From NCBI GenBank assembly GCA_002774635.1, contig PEXU01000049.1:1-61409 (forward strand): a stretch of 61,409 bases of DNA, given 5' to 3'. Positions 2,020 to 59,247 of the stretch are shown here, piece by piece. The DNA comes from Candidatus Kerfeldbacteria bacterium CG08_land_8_20_14_0_20_40_16. Its GTDB lineage: Bacteria > Patescibacteriota > Patescibacteriia > UM-FILTER-42-10. The first letter of the stretch is position 1. Each line of letters begins with the position of its first letter. Below the pieces are notes generated by a model. It worked only from the letters and a program-made list of their open reading frames with translations. It made no database searches and was not told the DNA's origin. The translations under genes were made by a program, and so were the position numbers.

Positions 2020-2330
2020 GTTATTGGTGCACTATGAGGAACGGGATAGCGATTTCCGCGTCTCTCCCCTCGGCTTCGCTCGGGGTCCTTGTCCTGGGCA
2101 GCCTGCCCGACATGCCGTCATGGCAGGCGGGCGCCAAATGCTCCTTATGGTCGCATTCGTCGGCGTTCGTCTGCATCCCGCTTTCGCGGGATTTGTCTCG
2201 CTTCTGCCCGTTCGAATCCCTCTCTGGAATCTTAAAAGCGGTAAACAAAAATATCCTGGTTTCCCAGAATATCTTTGTCGTGGTATGTTTATTTGACCAA
2301 ATCCGAACCTATTTTGTCCGTCTGCCGTAG
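2020..2330. other. GC-rich hairpin-dense block, unassigned (candidate structured RNA or decayed tRNA-derived DNA)
   Basis: Hand count 38/60 G+C for 2101-2160, against AT-rich flanks. Several stable hairpins: cctgcccg...caggcggg 2102-2131 and atcccgctttcgcgggat 2175-2192. The 13-mer GTTCGAATCCCTC at 2208-2220 is identical to the T-arm of the tRNA-Lys at 4186-4262. The three overlapping ORFs there look like artefacts. Confidence 0.4.
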
Positions 2331-2636: not shown

Positions 2637-2730
2637 GCTTCAAAATTTCCTTAGCAAAAAAAGCGATAATTCCTTTTTGCCTGTTCGTCTACGAAAGGCC
2701 AAAAGCGATTTACTATTAACACTAAAACCT

Positions 2731-4227
2731 ATGAACAAATTCTTTATCTATACCAGAAAATCAACTGATGATGAAGACCGGCAAGTTTTAAGCATTGAAG
2801 CACAAATTGCCGAACTTAGGGAGTTTGCCAAAAAAGAGAGTTTGGAAATAATTGACGAACTGATTGAATCCAAAACAGCTAAATATCCAGGCAGACCGAT
2901 ATTCAATGAAATGCTTTTAAAAATTGAAAATGGTGAGGCTGATGGAATAATTTCATGGAATCCTGATCGTTTGGCCAGAAACGCGGTTGACGGTGGTCAA
3001 ATTATAAACCTGGTCGATAAAGGCAAGTTGAAATCATTAAAATTCCCTACTTACTGGTTTGAACCGTCAAGCCAGGGTTTATTTATGCTGCAAATCGCTT
3101 TTGGCCAGGCTAAATATTACATTGATAATTTAAGCGAAAACGTAAAGAGAGGTATCAGGCAAAAATTAAGACGAGGTGAATGGCCTGGCATGGCGCCACT
3201 TGGTTATCTTAATGATTTAAAAACCCGTACCATTATAGTTGATAAAGAAAAAGCCCTAATTGTTGTTAAACTGTTCAAAGCCTACGCAAGTGGCAAATAT
3301 AGTTTTGAGGGTCTTTCTAAACTGGCTTTTTCTTGGAGTATAAAAACTAGAAAAACTAAAAAGGAATTATCGCTTTCGTTTATTCAAAGAATGCTGCAGA
3401 ATAAATTTTATCTTGGATTATTCTTACACAAAGGCGAAATCTATGAAGGCAAGCACGAGCCACTGATAGACAAAGCCACTTTTGACGCGGTTAAAAGAAT
3501 TATGAGCCAAAGAGGCAAACCAAGGAAAATTAAGACGCTATTAAATTTTCCATTCAGAGGTTTATTTACCTGCGGCGAGTGTGGCAGAACTATAACTGCT
3601 GAAAAACACACTAAAAAATCCGGACTGGTTTTTAAATATTATCGCTGTACCAAAAAGAACACCAATTGTTCGCAAAAATATCTTTCGGAAAATAATCTGG
3701 TAAAACAGGTGGATAAGATAATATCAAAAGTGGCTTTGTCTGATGATTGGTCTACTAAAATGCTTAAGCAAGTGAAAAAGTGGGAACGAGAGAAAGACCA
3801 ATCATCTGCCCTTGCGCTTAAAGGTTTAAATGAAGAATTGGAAAAATTAGAAACAAAACTTTCTAAACTGCTTGATGCGCATTTAAATGGCATTCTTGAG
3901 ATACAAGAATATCAAAACAAAAAAGCAGAACTTATGGAAAAGAAAGTCGCTTTAAAACAAAAGATTGCCCATTTGGGCAAGAAGGGCAATCAGTGGCTCG
4001 AACCATTGAAAAACTGGATATATGAAGCAAGTAACGCTAATAAAATACTTTTTGAAGGAAATTTTGAAGCAAAAGCCGAACTTTTAAAAAAGATTGGCTC
4101 GAACCGCCTCATTAAGTCGGACAAAGCCCTTATTTATTTGGAAAATTCGCGCCAAATTTTGGCGGAAAAATCGCCCACTTCCGATTGGTACGCCGTGAGG
4201 GATTCGAACCCCCGACCATCTGCTTAA
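2731..4227 (+). CDS. large serine recombinase (phage-integrase/transposase type)
   Basis: MNKFFIYTRKSTDDEDRQVLSIEAQ resolvase catalytic N-terminus. Central recombinase domain. Zn-ribbon CGECGR...YYRCTKKNTNC. Coiled-coil C-terminus. ATG at 2731 preferred over the TTG at 2677. The last 35 nt run antisense into tRNA-Lys. Confidence 0.9.
   Translation: MNKFFIYTRKSTDDEDRQVLSIEAQIAELREFAKKESLEIIDELIESKTAKYPGRPIFNEMLLKIENGEADGIISWNPDRLARNAVDGGQIINLVDKGKLKSLKFPTYWFEPSSQGLFMLQIAFGQAKYYIDNLSENVKRGIRQKLRRGEWPGMAPLGYLNDLKTRTIIVDKEKALIVVKLFKAYASGKYSFEGLSKLAFSWSIKTRKTKKELSLSFIQRMLQNKFYLGLFLHKGEIYEGKHEPLIDKATFDAVKRIMSQRGKPRKIKTLLNFPFRGLFTCGECGRTITAEKHTKKSGLVFKYYRCTKKNTNCSQKYLSENNLVKQVDKIISKVALSDDWSTKMLKQVKKWEREKDQSSALALKGLNEELEKLETKLSKLLDAHLNGILEIQEYQNKKAELMEKKVALKQKIAHLGKKGNQWLEPLKNWIYEASNANKILFEGNFEAKAELLKKIGSNRLIKSDKALIYLENSRQILAEKSPTSDWYAVRDSNPRPSA
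4106..4192. repeat. right copy of 87-bp inverted repeat (inside recombinase 3' coding region, overlaps tRNA-Lys 3' end)
   Basis: See the left copy at 2471-2557. Positions 4186-4192 are the CCA-acceptor end of tRNA-Lys. Confidence 0.85.
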
Positions 4228-4262
4228 AAGGCAGTTGCTCTACCTGGCTGAGCTAACGGCGC
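4186..4262 (-). tRNA. tRNA-Lys(UUU)
   Basis: Hand fold: GCGCCGT TA GCTC AGCCAGGTA GAGC A ACTGC CTTTTAA GCAGA TGGTC GGGGG TTCGAAT CCCTC ACGGCGT ACCA. Cloverleaf is intact and CCA is encoded. Confidence 0.9.
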
Positions 4263-4320
4263 TTATTAAAAGTATAATTTTATAATCTTAATTGGGAAGT
4301 ATTAAATTGTAAAGTGTATT

Positions 4321-4385
4321 TCCAGTAACCGTTAGCGAAGCCACTGGCTGCCTGTCCCGCTGAATAGCGGGAAGCTAACGGCGCA
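4321..4385 (-). pseudogene. 5' fragment of tRNA-Lys interrupted by a GC hairpin module
   Basis: Minus strand reads GCGCCGTTAGCT (identical to tRNA-Lys nt 1-12), then TCCCGCTATTCAGCGGGACAGG, then CAGCCAGTGG (compare D-loop CAGCCAGGTA), and then diverges. Confidence 0.5.
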
Positions 4386-4589
4386 GAAAAATAATAGTAT
4401 GCTTTATATTAACAAAGTATAGTAAATAAATCAAGGAACAATCCTTTAAAATGACCAAGGATTAATAAATAACGAAAAAAGGGAGGTTGAAATATTTTAG
4501 CTGTTTTTAGCGTAATATTTTACAGAGGTCATGCTTTAAGTAATTTAATATTACTATTGTATGATTATTTCATTAATAAATAAAAACTC

Positions 4590-6218
4590 ATGTTTTACCT
4601 ACGCTATTTGTGGGCGGAATTAACTCGCCGCTGGGGCAAAACGCTCACTATCTCCTTAGGCCTCGCTATGGCCAGCGCTATCATAATTACTATCATTTCT
4701 GTATCTCAAAGTTTGTCCGCGGCCCAAGATAAAGTTCTGAATCCTCTGCAGAACGTGGGAACCGACATCATGGTCAGCCGGACGGTGAATCCGGAAGAAA
4801 TATCAACTCTCGACGATGCCACTCGAGAAGAAGCATTGAACGACAATAGGATCACAATGGATTTTTCCAAGCTCGGAGAGCCCGGCGAGCAATTCACCAA
4901 CGATACGCTTATGCCAGGCAGCATGCTTACCTTTGCTTCATCGGAAACGGAAAAGCTGGATCCCTCGCTGGTAAAAATGTACGCGACGGGATTGGTGCTG
5001 AACGTAGTGCATCAAGAAGGGACTATTCCGAAATTGGCGGCTGAAATTGAAACCGGCGGACAACGCATTGGATTCAGCCAGACATTCCAGATGAGTGATG
5101 CGGATCGCCAAGCGTTTATGAATGCCCAACAAAAAACCATGGAAGAGCTACGAAACAAAGGAATCGACCCAAATTCAGAAGAGGGTCAGAAACTAATGCG
5201 AAAATCTGTCCCAAATCCGAACAGCACTGTAAGCGGCGAGATAGAAGTTCCTAAGGAAGTGATCCGCCAGGAAATCGGATCATTTTCAACTGATGTTAAA
5301 ACGGAAAATTTCACACTAGCAGGAGTAGATACAAGCAAAAATGACATTGGGCTTATTCTTCCCGACCAGATTGTAGAAGGACGCTATTTAGAACAGCCCG
5401 GTGAAGTGGTGGCCACCCGAGCCTTTGCCCAAAAAAAGAATTACTCTTTGAACGGCACGATTACCATTGGCGGCAAAGAATTTACTCTCGTCGGCATCGT
5501 TGATCCGAAACTGTATACCATGTCAGCCGATCTGTACATGTCCTTGACCGACGCACAACAACTGGCTGACCGCGACGGCAGGGTCAACGTATTGTTGGTC
5601 AAAGCCAGCAATGCGGATAACGTCAAGCCAGCGGGCGAAAGCGTTGCCGGAATATTTTCAGGCGTAAAAGTGACGGACGCATCGGAAACCGCCCAACAGG
5701 TTTCGGGTAGCCTAGTTAGTGCCTCTAGCTTAACCGATAAATTTATCGGCGTAACCAGCATTATTGTTGTGCTCGCGGCCTTTATTATCGTCAGTTTACT
5801 AACCATTCTTTCGGTCAACAAACGAGTACGGGAAATCGGCACGCTTAAGGCAATCGGCTGGAAAAATCATTTGATTATCCGGCAGATTGTCGCTGAAAAT
5901 ATAGTAATTGGAGTAATCGGCGCTGTGCTCGGCATCGGTCTGGCCCTGGGGGCAATCGCCCTTTTAAACCATTACGACATTTCGCTTTCCGCCACTGTTG
6001 CCGGCACTGATACCGGATTCGGTTTTGCTCGTCGATTCTTGGGAGGAGAAAAAAATGATGGGATTACCACCAGTGTTCAACTTAACGTAATTTACACTTA
6101 CACGGTGTTGGCCTTAGGTTCATTAATTGCCTTAGCTGCTTCCATTTTTGCTGGTACCTTAGCAGCGATTAAAGCGGCTAAAATGAAGCCGCAAGAGGCT
6201 TTTCGAAATTTGGAATAA
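4590..6218 (+). CDS. ABC transporter permease, FtsX/MacB-like with large extracytoplasmic domain
   Basis: N-terminal TM, a soluble domain of about 350 aa, and a C-terminal FtsX-type 3-TM bundle (VNKRVREIGTLKAIGW). Followed by a cognate ATPase. Confidence 0.8.
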   Translation: MFYLRYLWAELTRRWGKTLTISLGLAMASAIIITIISVSQSLSAAQDKVLNPLQNVGTDIMVSRTVNPEEISTLDDATREEALNDNRITMDFSKLGEPGEQFTNDTLMPGSMLTFASSETEKLDPSLVKMYATGLVLNVVHQEGTIPKLAAEIETGGQRIGFSQTFQMSDADRQAFMNAQQKTMEELRNKGIDPNSEEGQKLMRKSVPNPNSTVSGEIEVPKEVIRQEIGSFSTDVKTENFTLAGVDTSKNDIGLILPDQIVEGRYLEQPGEVVATRAFAQKKNYSLNGTITIGGKEFTLVGIVDPKLYTMSADLYMSLTDAQQLADRDGRVNVLLVKASNADNVKPAGESVAGIFSGVKVTDASETAQQVSGSLVSASSLTDKFIGVTSIIVVLAAFIIVSLLTILSVNKRVREIGTLKAIGWKNHLIIRQIVAENIVIGVIGAVLGIGLALGAIALLNHYDISLSATVAGTDTGFGFARRFLGGEKNDGITTSVQLNVIYTYTVLALGSLIALAASIFAGTLAAIKAAKMKPQEAFRNLE

Positions 6219-6250
6219 GCTGGATCGATTAACAAATTGATTAAAAAAAT

Positions 6251-6910
6251 ATGACCTTCATTAAAGCAAGAAATCTGCTTAAACAATACCGACAAGGAGC
6301 TAAAACAATAAACGCGGTGGATGGCATTAATTTGAACATGAACAAAGGAGAGTTTCTGGCTATTATCGGTCCTTCAGGGTCAGGAAAAAGCACACTGCTA
6401 CAGCTAATTGGCGGATTGGACCGGCCAACCAAAGGCACCATTGAAATAGACGATATTGAAATTACAAAAATAAGTGATGCTAAGCTTACCACATTGCGCC
6501 GTGATAAAATGGGATTCATTTTCCAGAACTTTAACCTGATTCCCACTCTTACTGCCGCCCAGAATATTGAAGCGGTTATTGCTAAGCGATCAAAAAGCGA
6601 CCGAAAAAAAGTCAAAGAGGTTTTAAAACAGGTGGGGCTAGAGGAACGGGCTAATCATTTGCCTAGTTTGCTTTCCGGCGGAGAGCAACAGCGGGTGGCA
6701 ATTGCCCGGGCGCTGATTAACGAGCCGGAGATAATTTTAGCAGACGAGCCGACGGGAAATTTAGACAGCAAAACCGGCGAGAGTATTATCCAGATATTGC
6801 ACAACTTAAACAAACGCAACAAAAAAACGGTTATTCTGGTTAGCCATTCTGACTATGTTAAAAAATACGCCGATCAAACTATTGAGATTAAAGACGGAAA
6901 AATAACATAA
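6251..6910 (+). CDS. ABC transporter ATP-binding protein (MacB/LolD-like)
   Basis: Walker [10 protein letters not shown], signature LSGGEQQR, Walker [12 protein letters not shown]. Confidence 0.9.
6878..6906 (+). repeat. direct repeat copy 1 (3' end of ABC ATPase gene)
   Basis: actattgagattaaagacggaaaaataac, 26/29 identical to 8045-8073. Weaker similarity continues for about 30 nt downstream of both copies. Confidence 0.75.
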
Positions 6911-7134
6911 TACAACAATAGTTCTTTTAAAACATGACCTTTATTTTTTTGAGAAAATAGCGCATAATTATAAAAAAGCACATTCAAAATCGTCCACTTA
7001 GTTAATCTCGATGTTGAGCTGGTCGCCGAAAAGTTCGTCAGGTTTGAAAGAATCTGTAGAGAACGTGGCGTCCGGATAGATGGCTGCTGGAAAACAGCCC
7101 ACGAGAACATCAGAGATTCTACATATTCTAAATT

Positions 7135-8052
7135 ATGAAACAGAAAATCGTTAATATAATTTCCGAAATCAAACGAGAGTTTAAAATAACGGAAAAATTC
7201 TCTAAAGCGTCCAATGGAACCAATTCGCAAGTTTTTGTGTCTGAAAATTTTATTATCAAAATCAATAAAAACATCACTGCTCTTAAGAAGGAATACGACG
7301 TGATAAAATCCTTAAAATCAAAATATGTTCCAAAAGCATTAGGCTTTGTAAATTTAAAGGGGCATGGAGCTATTATTGAAAAAAGAATTAATGGCGATGA
7401 TGTTCAAAAAGTTTGGAAGCAGTTTAGCCAGAAAAACAAAACAAGAATAATCAATGACTTGGCCGTTGCGCTCGCTTCTTTTCACCGTCAAAAATATGAC
7501 TATTTTTGGTCATTGAAGTCTAATAAAAAATTCAAAAGTTATGACAAATTGCTCATCATTAGGTTTAAAGAATATAAAAAGAGGATCTTGAGCAATAAAA
7601 CCGCTTGCGATCTTTATTTAAGGATTAAAGATAATTTGAATGAAGCCAGGATGGCTAAAATTTTTAAGAACGTCAAACCTGCCTTGGTCCATGGTGATTT
7701 AATTATGCATAACATTTTAACTGACGGCAAAAAATTGACCGGCATCATTGATTGGGAATACGTTCAATTCGGTGATCCTTTTTATGATCTGGCCAGAGTC
7801 ATTTACTATCAGGAATGCGCCAAGGCCTATATTGAGGAAAAGGGAGATATTCATTTTGAATATGATTTTACCACAAGATTGATAAACAAACTGCGAGAAT
7901 CTATTGAATTTAGTGAAGATAAGTATAAAATAATTAGATGCCTTTATTTTATTGATACGATTATTTGGGCTTTAAATTCCTCAGATCCTGAGTATAATTT
8001 AAAAAAATTAAAGCCGCCGACCTTAGGTCAATTGCGGGGCAAAAACCATTGA
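7135..8052 (+). CDS. APH-family phosphotransferase (aminoglycoside/choline-kinase-like fold)
   Basis: LVHGDLIMHNIL...IIDWEYVQFGDPFYDLA is the catalytic-loop and DxD-type motif of the phosphotransferase enzyme family. Confidence 0.75.
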   Translation: MKQKIVNIISEIKREFKITEKFSKASNGTNSQVFVSENFIIKINKNITALKKEYDVIKSLKSKYVPKALGFVNLKGHGAIIEKRINGDDVQKVWKQFSQKNKTRIINDLAVALASFHRQKYDYFWSLKSNKKFKSYDKLLIIRFKEYKKRILSNKTACDLYLRIKDNLNEARMAKIFKNVKPALVHGDLIMHNILTDGKKLTGIIDWEYVQFGDPFYDLARVIYYQECAKAYIEEKGDIHFEYDFTTRLINKLRESIEFSEDKYKIIRCLYFIDTIIWALNSSDPEYNLKKLKPPTLGQLRGKNH

Positions 8053-8073
8053 GATTAAGGACGGAAGAATAAC
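8045..8073 (+). repeat. direct repeat copy 2 (orphan ABC ATPase 3' end)
   Basis: accattgagattaaggacggaagaataac would encode TIEIKDGRIT, compared with [10 protein letters not shown] at the real ATPase C-terminus. Confidence 0.75.
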
Positions 8074-8250
8074 GGAACATAAAACAAAAGAATAATTCTT
8101 TTTAAATTATAAACTGGATCATTAGATTGAAACGGGCTTTACTTATAATACAATCAGCATTTGGAAAAAGTTCTTTTAAAATTACTTTTCCGCCGTAATT
8201 AAAAGTGCTATACTGAGGAAGCAGTATTTTATTATTATTTTTAAAATACC

Positions 8251-8760
8251 ATGTTTAAAAAAGTCACTCTAATCGCCATGTTTTTGGCGCTTTTTTTGTT
8301 GATCAGTGGCTTTGGCGGCTGCGGAAAGAAAGCCGCGGAAAAAGCCACAGAAAAAGCCATTGAAACGGTCACTAACGGACAGGCGGATGTAGATGTAAGC
8401 GACAACACCGTCACTATTAATACTAATACGGGATCTTATCAAGCAGGCGGTAATGTAGATTTACCATCAGATTTTCCTGACGATGTCTATGTTGTTGACG
8501 GCAATATTACCGCAGCAATTACTTCTGTTGAAAACAATGGATACACTGTTTCTATCGAAACCACCCAATCAGTCAACGACCTGGCAACTTTATACGAACA
8601 GAAGCTAAAAGATGAGGGCTGGACCATTACTTTAACTATGGCCTATGAAGGTACTGCCTCAGTTGGCGGTGAAAAGGATAACCGGATGGTTTCAGTCGGT
8701 ATGAATCCCAACGAGGAAGGAAAAACAATAGTAGTTATCACCACTTCTGAAACAAACTAA
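8251..8760 (+). CDS. lipoprotein, unknown function
   Basis: Signal peptide with lipobox LISGFGGC. Confidence 0.6.
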   Translation: MFKKVTLIAMFLALFLLISGFGGCGKKAAEKATEKAIETVTNGQADVDVSDNTVTINTNTGSYQAGGNVDLPSDFPDDVYVVDGNITAAITSVENNGYTVSIETTQSVNDLATLYEQKLKDEGWTITLTMAYEGTASVGGEKDNRMVSVGMNPNEEGKTIVVITTSETN

Positions 8761-8773
8761 TTAATTCAGTAAA

Positions 8774-8874
8774 CCCCGTTAGAAGCTCATGCGGAGCGTT
8801 AAAACCCACGTTCGCTAATTTATTAAGCATTCATCCCCACGGCAAGACCGTGAGGCATTCCGCTTCTAACGGGG
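8774..8874. repeat. 101-bp element bounded by 13-bp perfect inverted repeats
   Basis: ccccgttagaagc (8774-8786) and gcttctaacgggg (8862-8874). The 15-mer ttctaacggggtgaa (8864-8878) recurs at 45675-45689. Confidence 0.7.
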
Positions 8875-9240
8875 TGAAAGCAGGCAAATAAACCTAATTC
8901 ACTTTTCCTTGAGTTAAAATGAATCAGGATGGACATTTTCGCCTGCTTTTTGCTTTTTTGCCACCTTTCCCCTCCTTTTTGGGTAGGTGGAAAAAATGTA
9001 GAAAAAAAGCCCTTGCTCGGCTCAATTCAAAAGTGGTAAGATGGTTAAGAATTAGGAAGTTAGCTTGTAGCTGGTAGCTTGCGGAAGCAAGCCGCTAGCA
9101 ACCCTCCTTCCTAACTCTATAGCTCATTATTGTTCTATTGTTCTATTATTACGAACATGAAACAATAGGGCAATCAAGTAACCAAACAACTTAGTCTAAA
9201 AACCTACAAGCTACAAGCTAATTCCTACAAGCTAAACAAA

Positions 9241-10644
9241 ATGGCTAAAGAAACAACCGAGATAAGAGAAAACATCCCTCCTCATAATATCGAAGCAGAG
9301 CAAGCGGTTTTGGGCTCACTATTAATCGATAAGGATGCAATTGTTCGCATTGCCGATTTAGTGCATCCTGATGATTTTTATAAAGATGGACATCGGCTTA
9401 TCTTTGAAACCATGCTGGAACTGTACAATCAAAGGGAGCCGATTGACATTCTTAACCTCGCCAACCGTTTGACGGAAAAAGAATTGTTAGATTCTATTGG
9501 GGGTAGAAGCTACTTAATGAGTCTTGCCAATATTGTTCCAACGGCCAGCAACGTCGCCAATTATGCCAATATTGTCCAAAAAAAGGCAACGCTTAGAAGG
9601 TTAATTCAAAGCGCTCAACAGATTACCGGCTGGGGATACGAAGAAACGGAAGATATTAATATTATTTTGGATAAGGCCGAGCAAGCGCTTTTTAAGGTTT
9701 CACAAAAATATCTCAGACAAAATTTTATACCAATTAGGAGCGCTCTTACCGAGGCTTTTGACCGAATTGACGAACTACACCGAGAAGGCGGAAAATTACG
9801 AGGAATTCCGACCGGCTTTGTTGATTTAGATAATAAATTAGCCGGCCTTCAAAAATCCGATCTGATTATCATAGCTTCTCGCCCCAGCGTGGGAAAAACT
9901 TCACTGGCCTTGGATATTGTCCGACAAGTGGCCGTAAAATCAAAGATTCCGGTTGGAATCTTCAGCTTAGAAATGTCAAAAGAACAACTTGTAGATAGAA
10001 TGCTCTGTTCAGAAGCAAACGTCGATTTATGGAAAATGCGCACCGGCAAGCTCTCTGATCGGGAAGAAGACGACGATTTCCCCCGTATCGGCAATGCTAT
10101 AGGAGTATTATCCGAAGCGCCAATTTTTATTGATGATTCCGCCTCCTCTAATGTAATGGAGATAAGGACCAAGGCCAGAAGACTGCAAGCAGAGCAGGAT
10201 CTGGGCCTTCTGATTGTGGACTACCTCCAACTGATGGAGGGAGGAAGCACTTTCAAGGATAACCGTGTTCAGGAAATCGCCGAGATTACCCGTTCCTTAA
10301 AAGCGATTGCTCGGGAATTGAATATTCCGGTTATTGCTTTATCTCAGCTTTCTAGAGCAGTAGAATCCAGAAGTCCGTCTATTCCCAAGCTGGCGGATTT
10401 AAGAGAATCTGGGTCTATTGAGCAAGATGCCGATGTGGTAATATTCATCTATCGCGAGGTAATGGACAAAACGGTAAGAAGAGATGATTCAGAAAGAAGA
10501 AATATCGCCGAAATCCACATTGCTAAACACCGCAACGGTCCTACCGGAGTGATTGAACTGTTTTTTGACGAAGAAAAAGTGAGTTTTAAAAATCTTGCCA
10601 AAAAAATAGAAGAGGAAACAGTTACTGAATCTACTCCTTTTTAG
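9241..10644 (+). CDS. dnaB: replicative DNA helicase DnaB
   Basis: PPHNIEAEQAVLGSLL N-terminal motif, Walker A ASRPSVGKTS, and RecA-like C-terminal domain. Confidence 0.95.
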   Translation: MAKETTEIRENIPPHNIEAEQAVLGSLLIDKDAIVRIADLVHPDDFYKDGHRLIFETMLELYNQREPIDILNLANRLTEKELLDSIGGRSYLMSLANIVPTASNVANYANIVQKKATLRRLIQSAQQITGWGYEETEDINIILDKAEQALFKVSQKYLRQNFIPIRSALTEAFDRIDELHREGGKLRGIPTGFVDLDNKLAGLQKSDLIIIASRPSVGKTSLALDIVRQVAVKSKIPVGIFSLEMSKEQLVDRMLCSEANVDLWKMRTGKLSDREEDDDFPRIGNAIGVLSEAPIFIDDSASSNVMEIRTKARRLQAEQDLGLLIVDYLQLMEGGSTFKDNRVQEIAEITRSLKAIARELNIPVIALSQLSRAVESRSPSIPKLADLRESGSIEQDADVVIFIYREVMDKTVRRDDSERRNIAEIHIAKHRNGPTGVIELFFDEEKVSFKNLAKKIEEETVTESTPF

Positions 10645-10717
10645 GAATTAGGATTTGGGGTTTAGTTAAAAAACTCCAGGTACTAATCCCTACACCCTAA
10701 ACCCTAAACCCTATTTC

Positions 10718-11014
10718 ATGTTTAACAAACTTAAGCAAATCAAAGACTTAAGAGATCAAGCTAAAGAACTTCAAGGCCAGTTAGGCCAAGAGACTGTTTC
10801 TACCTCATCAGAAGAGGGGAAAATAAATCTGGTGATGGACGGCAATCAGCAGGTAGTGGGATTAGAAATTGATCCCCAACTCCTTAATATTGAGCAGAAG
10901 GAAACTCTGGAAAGAGGGCTAAAAGAGGCTTACAATGAAGCCGTTAAGAAAGTACAACGGATTATCGCTCAAAAAATCCAAGGCGGAAATTTCAACTTAC
11001 CAAATATTGGATAA
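10718..11014 (+). CDS. YbaB/EbfC-family nucleoid-associated protein
   Basis: 98 aa with the typical coiled N-terminus and a VVGLEIDPQLL core. Sits upstream of recR as in most bacteria. Confidence 0.85.
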   Translation: MFNKLKQIKDLRDQAKELQGQLGQETVSTSSEEGKINLVMDGNQQVVGLEIDPQLLNIEQKETLERGLKEAYNEAVKKVQRIIAQKIQGGNFNLPNIG

Positions 11015-11074
11015 CGGCAGATAGAAAGCGGATAAGGCTTAGTGATTTACAACTAACGACCTACGACCTACAAA

Positions 11075-11677
11075 ATGTCTAGATTTCCAGAAACAATTCA
11101 AAACCTGATCGAAGAATTTAATAAACTGCCGGGAATCGGACCCAAAACCTCGGAGCGGTTTATTTTTTATTTACTCAAACAGCCAACGGAAGAATTAGAT
11201 AAACTAGCGGAAAGAATAAAGCATCTAAAAGAAAAGATTACTACTTGCCCAATCTGCTACAACCTTACCGACACCACCCCCTGTGCTATCTGTTCCGATT
11301 CAAGAAGAGACCAAAAAACTATCTGCGTAGTTTCCGAAAGCCCAGATGTAATCGCAATTGAAAAAACAAGTAAGTACCAGGGCGTCTATCATGTTTTGGG
11401 TGGAGTAATCAACCAAATTGAGGGGATCGGCCCCGAGCAATTAAAAATCAAGGAATTAGTGAATAGAATCAAGAAAGACAGGATTAAAGAAATTATTCTG
11501 GCCACCAACCCTGATTTAGAAGGTGAATCAACCGCCCTTTACTTAGCGAGACTACTAAAACCAACGAAAATAAGAATAACCAGGATAGGAAGGGGGCTAC
11601 CGATGGGAAGCAATATTGAATACGCTGATGAGGTAACATTGGCTAATGCTCTCGCGGGAAGAGGAGAAATAAACTGA
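11075..11677 (+). CDS. recR: recombination protein RecR
   Basis: HhH LPGIGPKTSERF, Zn finger CPICYN...CAIC, and Toprim domain. Confidence 0.95.
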   Translation: MSRFPETIQNLIEEFNKLPGIGPKTSERFIFYLLKQPTEELDKLAERIKHLKEKITTCPICYNLTDTTPCAICSDSRRDQKTICVVSESPDVIAIEKTSKYQGVYHVLGGVINQIEGIGPEQLKIKELVNRIKKDRIKEIILATNPDLEGESTALYLARLLKPTKIRITRIGRGLPMGSNIEYADEVTLANALAGRGEIN

Positions 11678-11687
11678 CGATAAATCA

Positions 11688-11725
11688 AAGAAGGTGAACA
11701 AGCGCTTGTTCACCTTCTTTTTGTT
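11688..11725. terminator. bidirectional terminator between recR and rplU
   Basis: gaaggtgaacaagc/gcttgttcaccttc long stem flanked by an A-run and a T-run. Confidence 0.7.
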
Positions 11726-11737
11726 CCGGCAATTTTT

Positions 11738-12055
11738 CTAAGCGCTAATCTTTTCGATTCTTAATTTAGTATACCACTGGCGGTGCCCCCTTTTTCTTCG
11801 ATACCGGACTTTGGATTTATACTTAATAACCATTATTTTCTTATCCTTTTTTTCTTCCAGCACCTTAGCGGTAACCTCGGCTCCTTTTACTTTAGGAGTA
11901 CCAACTGATACTTTTTTTGCTGCTTCATCTGATACCAAGAGCACGTCTTTAAAAACTACCTCGTTTCCCTCTTTTTTGCCAAGTTTTTCCACCTTAATAA
12001 TATCTTTTTCTTTTACCTTATATTGTTTTCCTCCGGTTTTGATGATTGCAATCAT
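11738..12055 (-). CDS. rplU: 50S ribosomal protein L21
   Basis: MIAIIKTGGKQYKVKEKD N-terminus. Confidence 0.9.
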   Translation of the reverse strand: MIAIIKTGGKQYKVKEKDIIKVEKLGKKEGNEVVFKDVLLVSDEAAKKVSVGTPKVKGAEVTAKVLEEKKDKKIMVIKYKSKVRYRRKRGHRQWYTKLRIEKISA

Positions 12056-17837: not shown

Positions 17838-18344
17838 TTAACTTGCTTGTCTTATTTTATTGATCTCTTCTGGGGTTCTTATTTTAGTTAAAGCAATAAT
17901 AGTGGCCCTTACATTATTGATTTTATTCTTAGATCCCTGCATTTTACTGACTATGTTTTTAATCCCAGCCAACTCTAACACTGCTCTTACGGGACCCCCG
18001 GCAATAATTCCTCTTCCTGGCGGGGCAGGTTTCAAAAAGACTTTGGCGCCACCGGATTTCTCTTTTATAATATAAGGAATGGTATCATTGATTATTTTTA
18101 CTTTGATCAGATTCTTTTTTGCCGCGGTAACTGCCTTATTAACCGCCATTGACACGTCGGCTCCTTTTTTAATTCCCATTCCTACTCGTCCTTTTTGATC
18201 GCCTATCACTACACAAGCCCGAAAACTCATTCTTTTCCCGCCTGCTTGAACCCTGGTTACTCGAGAAATTTCAATTATTTTTTGTTCAAATTCATCCTTA
18301 GAAAGTTCTCTCATCGCTGATTTTCTTGTCTTTTTATAGATCAT
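17838..18344 (-). CDS. rpsE: 30S ribosomal protein S5
   Basis: ISRVTRVQAGGKRMSFRA and operon order. Confidence 0.95.
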   Translation of the reverse strand: MIYKKTRKSAMRELSKDEFEQKIIEISRVTRVQAGGKRMSFRACVVIGDQKGRVGMGIKKGADVSMAVNKAVTAAKKNLIKVKIINDTIPYIIKEKSGGAKVFLKPAPPGRGIIAGGPVRAVLELAGIKNIVSKMQGSKNKINNVRATIIALTKIRTPEEINKIRQAS

Positions 18345-19733: not shown

Positions 19734-19796
19734 AGGTTTTAGGTATTAGGTTTTAGGTATTAGGTTTTAGGTATTAGGTTTTAGGTATTAGGTTTA
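19734..19796. repeat. tandem repeat, 14-bp unit aggttttaggtatt x4.5
   Basis: Read directly from the sequence. Lies in a 151-bp rpsN-rpsH spacer and abuts the rpsH start codon. Confidence 0.9.
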
Positions 19797-19882
19797 AGTA
19801 GTTTCCAATTTTCAATTTTACAATTTTCATTTACCCCGTTACTTGAAAATTTATTGGAAATTGTAAATTGCCTCAGCATTTA

Positions 19883-26717: not shown

Positions 26718-26850
26718 TTTTTTATTAAAAAAAACCGCGATTTTTTCCAGTCTTTTCTTTCTTCACTTTTAAGGATTTCTTAAAAAACCCGGTTTAGTAT
26801 TTAATAAATTTTAATTATTGAAGAAAGTCTAACTCCGAAATAGCTTTTTT

Positions 26851-26897
26851 GAGTACTCGGTTGATATCCCGCGGACGCGGGATCATTTCCGATACTC
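26851..26897. repeat. extended GC hairpin in the rpsJ-rplC spacer
   Basis: gagtactcgg...atcccgcg gac gcgggat...ccgatactc. The core at 26866-26883 belongs to the TCCCGC-loop-GCGGGA family. Confidence 0.75.
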
Positions 26898-26928
26898 ATC
26901 AAGCTGAGAATTTCTTTAATTTTAAAAA

Positions 26929-27315
26929 TTACATTTTTATTTCTACATCCACTCCTGCCGGCAAACTCAGATTCATTAAGGTGTCAACGGTCTTGGCGGA
27001 AGGATCAATAATATCAATCAGACGCTTATGAACTCTCATTTCGTACTGTTCCCGTGAATTTTTATGGACAAAAGGAGAACGAATAACAGTGTACTTGCTT
27101 TTTTCGGTAGGGAGTGGTACGGGGCCACAAATTTTTGCTCCTGATCGCTCAGCAGTTTCAATAATCGTACGAGTTGACTGATCAATAATTTTATTGTCGT
27201 ACGCTTTAATTTTAATCCGAATCCGCTGATGAACAACTTCTTCTTCGTTATTTTCTTTATTTGTTCTCGGATTATCCCTATTTTCTGATGACTTCTTTTT
27301 CCCCTCAATTACCAT
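26929..27315 (-). CDS. rpsJ: 30S ribosomal protein S10 with N-terminal extension
   Basis: The core begins [17 protein letters not shown]. About 28 extra N-terminal residues. Confidence 0.9.
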
Positions 27316-33345: not shown

Positions 33346-33445
33346 TTTTTTGTGCTTTTGTCAAGAATAGGAACACCCCAATGCTAAGCATTAGGGCTTG
33401 TTTTATTATTTAAAATGTAGATAACAGCATGTCCTGCACGCCGTA

Positions 33446-33463
33446 GTCCCGTGGACGCGGGAC
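33446..33463. repeat. GC hairpin gtcccgtg gac gcgggac preceded by GTAG
   Basis: The 16-nt core tcccgYggacgcggga matches 26867-26882 at 15 of 16 positions. Lies in the convergent rpmB/MscS spacer. Confidence 0.75.
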
Positions 33464-33540
33464 GAAGGCATGTCAACCTGAACACTTGCTTCGAAAGTAC
33501 AGAGGATTAAGGAAATCCTTTTCTTAAAAGGATTTTTGTT

Positions 33541-37651: not shown

Positions 37652-37737
37652 TTATCAATAGGTTGCCTTAAAATTACTCTCCAAAACTAGTGGCTTAGGA
37701 CTTTATAACCATTTATTTTATAGTCTTGGGTCGGGGT

Positions 37738-38128
37738 TGGTCGGGGATACTGGACCCCGTACCACTTTCACTTCGTTCAAGTGTACGGGGCAGGCTTGTC
37801 CCACTTTAGCGGGATGCCGCCTTCTTTGTATTTTCTCATTAAGGTGGCGGCAAACCGGCGGCCTTCCCGCTTCGCGGGACAGGCACGCACCCTTCTCACA
37901 TCTGGTCGGGGATGCCGGACTTGAACCGGCGGCCTCATGCACCCCATGCATGCGCGCTAGCCAACTGCGCCAATCCCCGGACCAGATGTGAGAATGTACT
38001 AAAGGCATCTTACAGTAGCGCCTTTACCCGCCGAATCCGCTAAACGGCGGAGTAGGCGGGCCATGCATGCGCGCTAGCCCCGCCTGCAATGCCTGGCACT
38101 GGCGGGCAGGCAACTGCGCCAATCCCCG
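37738..38128 (-). pseudogene. tRNA-Pro-derived outer copy split by four insertions (D-loop, anticodon loop, after the anticodon stem, T-loop). Could be a decayed gene or a multi-intron precursor.
   Basis: After removing the inserts, the 5' 36 nt are identical to the inner tRNA-Pro. The 3' pieces are GGGTGCGTG, AGGCCGCCGGTT and GTCCAGTATCCCCGACCA, which differ from the inner copy at 3 positions in total. Confidence 0.5.
37903..37979 (-). tRNA. tRNA-Pro(GGG)
   Basis: Hand fold: CGGGGAT TG GCGC AGTTGGCTA GCGC G CATGC ATGGGGT GCATG AGGCC GCCGG TTCAAGT CCGGC ATCCCCG ACCA. Confidence 0.9.
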
Positions 38129-57973: not shown

Positions 57974-58684
57974 TCAATTAGCAATCATTTCTTTGATTGC
58001 CTGGCTATTTTGAAAGTAATATTCAGCTTTTAGCGCATCTCCTTCTAATTGTTCTACCTCCCCTAACTGCTGATAAATTTCGGAACGGATTAAACCCAAG
58101 TTGTGATATTGGTCGGGAGCAACTCCGGGTGAATCGGGGCTCGGGAACAGTACTAGAGCCTGAAACAATTTTTCCTTCGCTTTAGAGTAGTTTCCCGATT
58201 CTTTCAGTCCCTCGCCCCACCAATAATAGAAAGGGGCGTAATTTGGACCATTAGTGATTGCTTTACCAAACGCTTGATCCATCAGTTGGTATTTTGTCGG
58301 ATCAATTTTCCCCCAAAACTTCATCAGTTCTCCTAGGGTAGGATAATAATTAAATCCATTAGGATTTTTGTGATAGATATAATCTAATTCCTCTAGCGCT
58401 TTTTGAAAAAGAGCATTTTGATTTTCATAATTATCCTTTAAGAAAGCCAGTTTAATCAGCAGATTAACATAGCGATAACGATAGGGAATCTCTGCTGATG
58501 TGAATTGGGCATTAAAAATAATCTTGCTATGCAAATCCTGGATTTCATATTGGGCAAAACGGCTTTCTAAATTTACTGATTCCATTTGCTTTAGATAAAC
58601 ATCGGCGATGGCCGGTCTGACAACTATAAACCAAATTAAAAATAAAGCTGATAAACCTCCTAAGATGCTGAGTATTTTTTTCAT
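57974..58684 (-). CDS. membrane-anchored TPR-like protein
   Basis: N-terminal TM helix and helical-repeat-like composition. Confidence 0.5.
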   Translation of the reverse strand: MKKILSILGGLSALFLIWFIVVRPAIADVYLKQMESVNLESRFAQYEIQDLHSKIIFNAQFTSAEIPYRYRYVNLLIKLAFLKDNYENQNALFQKALEELDYIYHKNPNGFNYYPTLGELMKFWGKIDPTKYQLMDQAFGKAITNGPNYAPFYYWWGEGLKESGNYSKAKEKLFQALVLFPSPDSPGVAPDQYHNLGLIRSEIYQQLGEVEQLEGDALKAEYYFQNSQAIKEMIAN

Positions 58685-59247
58685 AATTCTATTCGGTCAA
58701 TCTTTATTACAGATTCATTATCTGAGTAATAATTTTGAAATGAGGGATACAACCAGTCTTTAGGATTATTAATCAATCCAGCCTGAACGGGATTATTATG
58801 AATATAATTCAGTTTCTGGACAAATTTTTCTTCTGAGTAGATATTAAAGTCGTAAAAACCTTTTTGCCAAAACTTACCTGAACGTTTAAGATAAGTGTTT
58901 ATTTTTCTGGCACTCGCTCCTTTTATTCTCTTTACTACGTAGGAAATGTCACTACGGGTAGGTTCGAATGAATTCGCCTCGGGCTTATTAGGTTCGAATG
59001 AATCCGAACCTACCCGTTTTTTCTCGAATGAATCCGAACCTACCCGTAACTGGATTAATAAATGAATATGATTCAACATTATAACGTAACCTAATAATTT
59101 ATATTTTAATTCATTCCTTAATTCATCTAAAACTTGAATGAAAACTTCACGACATTTTGTATCTGTAAATAAATTTAATTTTTCAATAGTATTAACAGTA
59201 ACAAAATGTACCTGATTCTCGATATTAAGCTTTGGTAAAACACCCAC
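58681..59247 (-). CDS. IS200/RAYT-like HUH (Y1) transposase
   Basis: HFVTVNT..., LLGYVIMLNHIHLLIQ (HUH), FWQKGFYDFNIYS...YIHNNPVQAGL. Overlaps the downstream gene by 4 nt. Confidence 0.8.
   Translation of the reverse strand: MGVLPKLNIENQVHFVTVNTIEKLNLFTDTKCREVFIQVLDELRNELKYKLLGYVIMLNHIHLLIQLRVGSDSFEKKRVGSDSFEPNKPEANSFEPTRSDISYVVKRIKGASARKINTYLKRSGKFWQKGFYDFNIYSEEKFVQKLNYIHNNPVQAGLINNPKDWLYPSFQNYYSDNESVIKIDRIEL
58956..59047. repeat. three tandem units of about 30 bp, in frame, inside the RAYT-like gene, each with palindromic arms
   Basis: tcgaatgaatccgaacctacccgt is identical at 58994-59017 and 59024-59047. taggttcg (58989-58996) pairs with cgaaccta (59005-59012). Confidence 0.85.

Follow-up and report, generated by a model that had tools for sequence, protein, structure and literature searches.

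The 61,409-nt contig PEXU01000049.1 of Candidatus Kerfeldbacteria bacterium CG08_land_8_20_14_0_20_40_16, analysed over its whole length and referred to here as the window, contains a set of short GC-rich hairpins, several of which lie inside copies of tRNA genes. The question raised by this locus is whether these hairpins form a single dispersed family of mobile palindromes. A sequence-only reading had proposed such a family, divided into types A and B and preferentially inserted into tRNA-derived DNA and operon spacers, and had likened it to repetitive extragenic palindromic (REP) sequences and miniature inverted-repeat transposable elements (MITEs). The analysis separated the hairpins into two classes: insertion elements that carry the tag CCTG, present in six copies, and integral helices of structured RNAs. 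With a probability of roughly 0.6, the first class represents non-autonomous, REP-like insertion elements and the second non-mobile helices of conserved structured RNAs.

Hairpin census and the CCTG-tagged elements

Every hairpin of the sequence-only reading was found at the position given for it or at most 1-2 nt away, and both the identity of the cores at 26867-26882 and 33447-33462 (15 of 16 positions) and the GTAG preceding the 33447 hairpin were correct. The pattern TCCCGY-N3-6-RCGGGA matched five times (at 2176, 4355, 26867, 33447 and 37865), compared with 0.02 expected from 100 dinucleotide-preserving shuffles of the window. The type A pattern CCTGCCCG-N10-20-CAGGCGGG, searched as CCTGCCCGN{10,20}CAGGCGGG, matched at the two positions previously noted (2102-2131 on the plus and 38079-38110 on the minus strand), compared with 0 in shuffles of the same kind. 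A variant hairpin, TCCCACTTTAGCGGGA, was located at 37799-37814. Perfect GC-rich hairpins overall were about three times as frequent as in the shuffles, with clusters at 2100-2420, 4355, 26867, 33446 and 37732-38111.

The recurrence of the motifs could in principle reflect chance and the composition of GC islands in an AT-rich genome, as the stems are short (6 bp) and a scan of viral contigs for type B gave many chance-like matches in GC-rich DNA among the matches listed. The shuffles refute this explanation for both motifs, as does the recurrence of a 33-nt sequence with exact ends, described below. Furthermore, 11 TCCCGC hairpins were found in 500 kb of independent AT-rich loci, several of them within the longer repeat TGTCAT-TCCCGC-loop-GCGGGA-ATCYAG. 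Chance was therefore considered hardly credible.

Six modules share an unpaired 5′ CCTG followed by a GC-rich hairpin that reaches the last base. On folding, each consisted of a free CCTG and a hairpin of 15-36 nt, often bulged, the whole elements being 19-40 nt long; the preceding base was G in five of the six. Of the tetranucleotides found 5′ of GC hairpins in the window, CCTG was the most frequent, and it was again the top tag in 500 kb of independent AT-rich loci in which the searched element had been masked (17 of 802 flanks). Within the 61 kb, the six copies are grouped at four loci. Five lie in tRNA-linked DNA, four in fragments of tRNA genes and one in a tRNA-linked module, the exception being the composite at 33433. 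An additional automated match to a CCTG hairpin, at 17996-18029, was discarded because it is conserved coding sequence of ribosomal protein S5. Type B did not hold together as one family: the copies at 4351 and 37865 are CCTG-tagged and the 33447 core lies inside a tagged composite, whereas the hairpins at 26867 and 2176 are covarying RNA helices. The features are listed in Table 1.

Table 1. Positions of hairpin elements, structured RNAs and associated features in the window
Feature	Position	Strand	Context
Type A CCTG element, 32 nt, CCTG-CCCGCC-AG-TGCC-loop-GCA-GGCGGG	38079-38110	−	Between G18 and G19 (D loop), 5′ pseudo-half of tRNA-Pro
Type A-like CCTG element, 30 nt, interior differs	2102-2131	+	Optional insertion in tRNA-linked module
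Type B CCTG element, 19 nt, CCTG-TCCCGC-GAA-GCGGGA	37865-37883	−	tRNA position 43/44, 3′ pseudo-half of tRNA-Pro
CCTG hairpin, 40 nt, CCTG-CCCCGTAC...GTACGGGG	37755-37794	−	T loop, 3′ pseudo-half of tRNA-Pro
Untagged double-hairpin insert, 54 nt, GCCGCC..GGCGGC + TCCCGCTAAAGTGGGA	37799-37852	−	T loop, 3′ pseudo-half of tRNA-Pro
Type B CCTG element, 22 nt	4351-4372	+	Inside tRNA-Lys 5′ fragment (4326-4385)
Composite CCTG hairpin, 40 nt, CCTG-CACGCC-GTAG-TCCCGT-GGAC-GCGGGA-CGAA-GGCATG	33433-33472	+	MscS/rpmB spacer; encloses 33447 hairpin
3′ pseudo-half of tRNA-Pro with three inserts	37738-37892	−	In all strains; T-stem mismatch
Intact tRNA-Pro(GGG)	37903-37979	−	Nested between the two pseudo-halves
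149-nt polymorphic segment (5′ pseudo-half 38061-38128 with A element, plus 81-nt spacer)	37980-38128	−	18-nt direct repeat CGGGGATTGGCGCAGTTG at bounds
Three-tier stem-loop	26835-26912	−	rpsJ-rplC spacer of S10 operon mRNA; tip is hairpin 26867-26882
tRNA-linked structured module, ~170-200 nt	2024-2236	−	Hairpin 2176-2191 is one of its helices
RAYT-type Y1 (HUH) transposase homologue	58681-59247	−	Candidate mobilising enzyme

Gain and loss between strains and species

Individual copies were checked for presence or absence between strains, as the sequence-only reading had suggested, and the 30-nt element at 2102-2131 proved to be polymorphic. It is exactly absent from the corresponding loci of three different assemblies (L012, L014 and L017; L numbers denote the loci compared), which are 97-98% identical to the window in this region, and from a Logan contig of run X3. 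At the empty site the sequence is GGGCA(G)CGCC; the ambiguity is at most 1 nt (the single G), and no target duplication is present. The sister species L018 lacks the 33433-33472 copy in its orthologous MscS/rpmB spacer, and two different GC hairpins lie upstream of its rpmB; element positions thus differ between sister species.

The tRNA-Pro locus

At 37738-38128, a disrupted tRNA holds in its anticodon loop an intact tRNA-Pro(GGG) of the same anticodon. Read on the tRNA strand, the order is 5′ pseudo-half, 81-nt spacer, intact tRNA-Pro, 10 nt and 3′ pseudo-half. The 5′ pseudo-half comprises tRNA positions 1-18, the 32-nt insert and positions 19-36; the 3′ pseudo-half comprises positions 35-77 with inserts of 19 nt (at 43/44) and 54 + 40 nt (T loop). 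Excision of the inserts restored the tRNA, as had been claimed, with matches at 36 of 36 positions in the 5′ half and 39 of 42 in the 3′ half. The outer tRNA-Pro is a dispensable pseudogene, with the intact copy alongside. An origin of the 5′ pseudo-half by tandem duplication was ruled out, the sequences upstream of the two copies being unrelated. The inner tRNA-Pro is flanked by a 14-bp leader-trailer helix (TTCTCACATCTGGT / ACCAGATGTGAGAA).

The 149-nt segment that includes the 5′ pseudo-half was present in the window and in L006, and was lacking in eight of ten contigs that are otherwise 99.9% identical. Both of its ends fall within an 18-nt direct repeat, so that deletion alone could account for the difference between strains.

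The element family outside the window

The element at 38079-38110 belongs to a 33-nt family, a member of which is also carried by other contigs of the same aquifer. Metagenome contigs were scanned with the exact 20-mer CCTGCCCGCCAGTGCCAGGC, and the figures for the family given here and below refer to the matches listed. The type A consensus, of 32-33 nt, is CCTG-CCCGCC-AG-TGCC-AGGCNNN-GGCA-GGCGGG, with variation only in the last three bases of the loop. The 33-nt element occurred in at least 91 different flank contexts, and conservation stopped exactly at its ends. The base at −1 was a purine in 87% and that at +1 a G in 54%. Copies were single or in direct tandem, head-to-tail in L238 and L185, and 55% were intergenic compared with 23% expected. 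The carrier contigs, from many metagenomes, mostly had 33-50% GC, some being 600-740 kb long. When aquifer contigs were aligned to the window, depth spikes indicated that A elements also reside in further genomes of this aquifer that are more abundant. In viral contigs, pattern scans for types A and B gave mostly chance matches in GC-rich DNA among the matches listed, apart from near-identical A copies in L108 and L162; near-identical copies occurred even in a viral contig of 53% GC.

Inverted repeats of at least 6 nt flanked seven of the metagenome copies listed, compared with 0.7 expected; this tenfold excess suggests that a hairpin was already in place and that the element occupies its tip. 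In L199, the element was located at a terminator-like hairpin.

These data support the earlier likening to REP/MITE-type mobile palindromes insofar as a short, GC-rich palindromic insertion family was found that is polymorphic and has at least 91 contexts; the RNA helices among the type B hairpins do not belong to it. They also narrow the proposed preference for tRNA-derived DNA, which is strong in the window (five of six) and weak elsewhere: only 3 of 101 metagenome copies adjoined real tRNAs, so the preference is not general. A BLAST search against tRNAs gave no excess of tRNA fragments near the metagenome copies over controls, once an artefactual, element-containing ‘tRNA’ had been discounted.

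The copies that do adjoin tRNAs are informative. In L185 (760-1060), a perfect tRNA-Ala(CGC) is split at 37/38 by a cassette in which two A elements bracket an intact tRNA-Ala(CGC), which is the nested architecture of tRNA-Pro in the window. The inner tRNA-Ala(CGC) differs in sequence from the outer, and a D-loop insert is also present. In L176, an A element lies between an intact tRNA-Pro(CGG) and stacked 5′ fragments.

The tRNA-Lys locus and a serine recombinase cassette

The hairpin at 4355 was confirmed to lie in a tRNA-Lys fragment, with its site corrected to between positions 12 and 13 of the 5′ fragment, in the D stem and not the loop. A contig of run X3 joined 4262 to 4397, skipping the 134 nt (4263-4396) that contain the tRNA-Lys 5′ fragment and the CCTG element. 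The 149-nt (37980-38128) and 134-nt (4263-4396) polymorphisms each lie directly 5′ of an intact tRNA, and each segment holds a 5′ fragment of the adjoining tRNA with a CCTG element.

Between the tRNA-linked module and tRNA-Lys is a 2-kb cassette with a gene for a large serine recombinase (open reading frame (ORF) 2677-4227). Inverted repeats of 87-130 nt (2468-2595 and 4068-4195; ~91% identical) frame the gene and begin with the 3′ end of tRNA-Lys, and the end of the ORF overlaps the tRNA. The segment could be an invertible or an integrative cassette. The assembly graphs break at these inverted repeats.

This arrangement raises the possibility that the hairpins and tRNA fragments are scars of tRNA-targeting integrative elements with large serine or tyrosine recombinases, the hairpins being part of the attachment-site arms. 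Such an origin would fit the position of the recombinase gene, which abuts tRNA-Lys between that tRNA and the module, the tRNA 3′-end copies situated after intact tRNAs (window, L020 and L199), the polymorphic 149-nt and 134-nt cassettes directly 5′ of intact tRNAs, and the recurrence of a nested tRNA of the same anticodon in L185. It does not account for the 2102 element, whose 30 nt were gained or lost alone, or for most of the at least 91 contexts, which have no tRNA or recombinase nearby. Moreover, excision of each insert separately restores a colinear tRNA, which requires independent insertions into an existing tRNA copy. On balance, integrative scars appear an unlikely source of the hairpins.

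Conserved structured RNAs that share the stem

The copy in the rpsJ-rplC spacer, read earlier as an inserted module, is instead the tip of a conserved, covarying leader structure. The stem-loop was found in orthologous position in L018, L053, L054 and L419. Its flanks AAUGA...UAUC(A/G)A are conserved, the stem is changed to TCTCCC/GGGGGA and TCCTGG/CCAAGGA, and compensatory changes affect 6 of 24 pairs across four sequences. Orthology and compensatory changes together indicate that this hairpin is a conserved mRNA structure and not an insertion. The spacer is unusually long at 211-349 nt (window 26718-26928; L018:10719-10954; L054:3028-3376). In L018, the apical loop of the leader has a 31-nt AT-rich perfect palindrome, which has CTTTGTATTTT in common with the 54-nt insert at window 37815-37852, and L054 has an extra hairpin of ~100 nt (TCCCGTTAGAA...TTCTAACGGGA) just before rplC. 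The S10 protein itself (26929-27315, 128 aa) has an N-terminal extension of ~25 aa that is common to close relatives.

The hairpin at 2176-2191 is a helix of the tRNA-linked module. The module starts with a T-stem 5′ strand and a 26-nt block, GGGAUUCGAACGGGCAGAAGCGAGAC, and ends with ...GCGGAAAUC, the T-stem 3′ strand, the acceptor 3′ strand and (A)CCA (ACCA in the window), where an intrinsic terminator follows (1990-2015). Homologues beside tRNA genes were found at L199:8338-8532 (+) and L020:8286-8432 (+), making three different Patescibacteria in all. The former adjoins a tRNA with a group I intron, the latter lies 65 nt downstream of tRNA-Lys, and in both the final 16-18 nt repeat the 3′-terminal sequence of the adjacent tRNA. 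The helix covaries, reading TTCCGC/GCGGAA in a strain variant, TCCCGCC/GGCGGGA in L199 and TTGTCG/CGACAA in L020, and 12 of 34 predicted pairs of the module are compensatory. Compared with L012, L014 and L017, the 2176-2191 hairpin has five substitutions in 16 nt, compared with ~2% difference in its flanks; in the stem a C to T and a G to A change compensate each other, and the loop changes from TTTC to TCCT. Either rapid compensatory evolution or replacement of the helix could explain these substitutions.

The module occurs about once per genome: a covariance model gave three matches in 760 kb and no further copies there. Neither the module, the rpsJ-rplC leader nor the elements matched an Rfam 15 family, and nothing credible was returned in E-value mode. 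Identities as transfer-messenger RNA (tmRNA), RNase P, signal recognition particle RNA, 6S RNA or a Y-RNA-like RNA found no Rfam or ARAGORN support for 2024-2236. The sequence GGAUUCGA(A)CGGG resembles tmRNA 5′ ends, but a matching acceptor strand is absent. Two identities are conceivable for the module: a new RNA gene, or the conserved terminus of a miniature integrative element.

Neither of the hairpins at 26867-26882 and 2176-2191 is mobile; that both contain the stable TCCCGC/GCGGGA stem is coincidental. The same stem forms one helix of a group I intron (L199:7944-8221; Rfam 56.9 bits) that interrupts the anticodon loop of a Patescibacteria tRNA.

Since two of the listed copies are conserved covarying helices, it may be asked whether all the hairpins are functional RNA or DNA modules (transcript stabilisers, terminators or factor binding sites), with the ‘insertions’ as RNA expansion segments and the motifs recurring through repeated use of a small set of highly stable GC stems by AT-rich Patescibacteria. 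The helix in the L199 intron is in keeping with this, as are the position of the inserts mostly in loops, tolerable for an RNA, and the near invariance of the 33-mer across lineages with only the last three loop bases varying. The exact 30-nt indel between 98%-identical strains, in contrast, would not be expected of such modules, nor would the at least 91 unrelated flanks, the head-to-tail tandems in L238 and L185 and the non-orthologous positions in sister species. The carrier of most copies, the pseudo-tRNA-Pro, is moreover dispensable, and its 5′ half is missing in eight of ten strains. A functional role common to all the hairpins was thus judged improbable. For the CCTG elements, the narrower idea that GC islands are simply RNA genes, in the manner of thermophiles, was ruled out by the strain indel and the many contexts.

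Proposed mechanism and the RAYT homologue

If the CCTG hairpins are REP-like insertion elements, as preferred here, the hairpin would fold in single-stranded DNA and be recognised, cut and joined by a trans-acting recombinase, putatively an HUH/Y1 enzyme of the RAYT or IS200 kind. Insertion would leave no target duplication, would usually follow a purine and would often strike the loop of a DNA hairpin that is already present; in tRNA-gene copies, the D, variable and T loops would be such targets. An insertion into an essential single-copy tRNA gene would presumably be lethal. Elements would thus be observed solely in spare tRNA fragments that have an intact gene as neighbour, and the surviving copies may pile up there.

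The RAYT-like HUH transposase reported at 58681-59247 is supported by its score against NCBIfam REP_Tyr_transpos NF047646 (110.9 bits, cut-off 80) and has the HUH motif (NHIHLL) and the catalytic Tyr (YIHNNP). Its gene is tightly packed between a Wzy_C gene and a TPR gene. In two genomes, homologues with 55% identity overlap a Lactamase_B gene in conserved housekeeping synteny. All RAYT homologues encode an internal stretch, VGSNSFE...PEANEF, derived from a palindrome whose DNA is of the GTAG type. At 58960-59045 of the window ORF, GGGTAGGTTCGGATTCATTCGA occurs twice in frame together with an inverted copy, and the window copy has an extra repeat of 13 aa. This GTAG-type palindrome inside its own ORF is the sole palindrome tied to the RAYT gene, and no dispersed copies of it were found in the window.

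Several observations weigh against the proposed mobility or its mechanism. No A or B hairpin was found within 500 nt of the RAYT gene. The homologue loci L296 and L298 showed no such hairpins within 20 kb, and a further 20 kb of one of these genomes, syntenic with the window, contained none either, making 40 kb of a RAYT-bearing relative devoid of elements. A phmmer search with the window RAYT against the ORFs of 120 element-bearing loci (700 kb) gave one weak Y1 match, 5.5 kb from the element. The link between RAYT and the CCTG hairpins suggested by the sequence-only reading was therefore not upheld. Short flanking direct repeats of variable length were present at 27 of the metagenome copies listed, compared with ~5 expected, and are not predicted by a Y1 mechanism. 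The tRNA-Lys insert (position 12/13) lies in a stem and not a loop. Near invariance of the 33-mer across many lineages could mean a conserved host function instead of selfish spread. Dispersal of CCTG-tagged type B drew no support from the viral-contig scan, in which the matches listed were chance-like and in GC-rich DNA. Lastly, a clean empty site was obtained for a single element only, and the 149-nt and 134-nt polymorphisms are explicable as deletions between direct repeats.

A bolder version would regard the CCTG hairpins as Patescibacteria-wide single-stranded DNA elements that home to hairpin tips and tRNA loops, accompanied by replacement-tRNA cassettes that drive a continual turnover of tRNA genes; on this view, the ~170-200-nt module with its T arm and ACCA (window, L199 and L020) would represent either a new structured RNA or a miniature integrative element belonging to this system. 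This extension is doubtful at present.

Other features of the window

The GC content of the window is ~38%. Its minus strand carries the S10 ribosomal operon, together with a DUF5667 protein and other Patescibacteria-type genes. The nearest species representative is Candidatus Kerfeldbacteria bacterium CG_4_10_14_0_8_um_filter_42_10 (79% identity in a P-type ATPase, 94% in S10), and contigs near-identical to the window came from many groundwater and aquifer metagenomes. Only two tRNAs were called, tRNA-Lys(UUU) at 4186-4262 and tRNA-Pro(GGG) at 37903-37979, both on the minus strand, and no other Rfam 15 family reached its gathering score in the window.

Further repeats were observed. The hairpin at 2380-2420, GCGGGGCGGAA-N17-TTCCGCCCCGC, matched short aquifer contigs with depths of 4,000-12,000, compared with ~10 for this genome, and many different flanks, as of a very abundant repeat or a CRISPR-like repeat of other community members; no copy was present among the metagenome loci examined. 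A second depth spike (~700-1,900) covered the hairpin CTGCCGTAGCTTTAGCGAAGGCAG at 2278-2345, and a related core, TAGCTTTAGCGA, occurred in L019 and L241, probably as another dispersed repeat family. A 14-nt unit, AGGTTTTAGGTATT, is present in ~5 tandem copies at 19734-19803, in a spacer of the ribosomal protein operon.

Significance and comparison with known systems

Patescibacteria have tiny, streamlined genomes and are thought to be poor in mobile elements. A hairpin family of 19-40 nt with a new tag, gained and lost between strains that are 98-99.9% identical, would represent miniature selfish DNA active in this group, and would explain contig breaks and the pseudo-tRNA clutter beside tRNA genes. 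The 33-mer offers a handle for tracing horizontal spread among uncultured lineages. Annotation calls for caution, as one and the same short GC stem may belong to mobile DNA in one place and to an integral RNA helix in another, two candidate new structures being the rpsJ-rplC leader and the tRNA-linked module. Targeting of hairpins and tRNA loops together with nested replacement tRNAs, if true, would reveal a new way in which bacterial tRNA genes evolve. Neither sequence-based nor topical searches of the literature turned up an account of these elements.

REP families are, as a rule, confined to a single species. The CCTG elements resemble REPs and REPINs in being imperfect, often bulged GC palindromes of 20-40 nt with an unpaired conserved tetranucleotide at one end, dispersed and mostly intergenic among the metagenome copies listed, some in tandem or clustered, with positions that vary between strains and species and a RAYT-type gene in the genome. 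They differ in that a single 33-nt sequence recurs almost unchanged in many Patescibacteria-like lineages, that insertion takes place in the loops of tRNA copies and at hairpin tips, that copies are single or in direct tandem and not inverted doublets, and that the RAYT gene is not flanked by elements as in a REPtron. The tag of the six modules is CCTG and not GTAG or CGTC, the tags of the described REP superfamilies (Di Nocera et al. 2013, PMC3733652); GTAG precedes only the inner 33447 hairpin. As the tag, the REPtron and the inverted doublets that define REPs were not observed, the CCTG family is placed near the REP kind and not as a member of it.

Palindrome-associated elements derived from IS200/IS605 move as single strands by ‘peel and paste’, catalysed by Y1 HUH transposases. 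Shared with the CCTG elements are an architecture built on a hairpin, a tetranucleotide that adjoins the foot of this hairpin, and exact gain or loss that leaves no target duplication. Each CCTG element has, however, a single hairpin in place of distinct left and right end hairpins, no associated tnpA or tnpB gene, and no strong target word of 4-5 nt, only the purine at −1 and the G at +1 being enriched among the matches listed. By analogy, single-strand transposition of the REP/RAYT or IS200/IS605 type would be the nearest model for the mechanism. MITEs differ in having terminal inverted repeats and a target-site duplication of fixed length: the empty site of the 2102 element has an ambiguity of at most 1 nt, and the flank repeats elsewhere are 5-13 nt.

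The mobile GC clusters of yeast mitochondria, the repetitive hairpin-forming elements of sponge mitochondria (PMC2800124) and the Rickettsia palindromic elements are similar in that GC hairpins invade the RNA genes and spacers of a small AT-rich genome and nest there. Here the host is a free bacterial genome, of the Patescibacteria, no sequence similarity exists, and ends and tag differ. Finally, the tRNA genes of Thermoproteales contain multiple short introns that transpose between tRNA loops, and the several related inserts of 19-54 nt at non-canonical positions of one tRNA (D loop, 43/44 and T loop) are reminiscent of these. In contrast to the archaeal introns, the carrier here is a dispensable pseudogene beside the intact gene in a bacterium, and the same elements lie mostly outside tRNAs.

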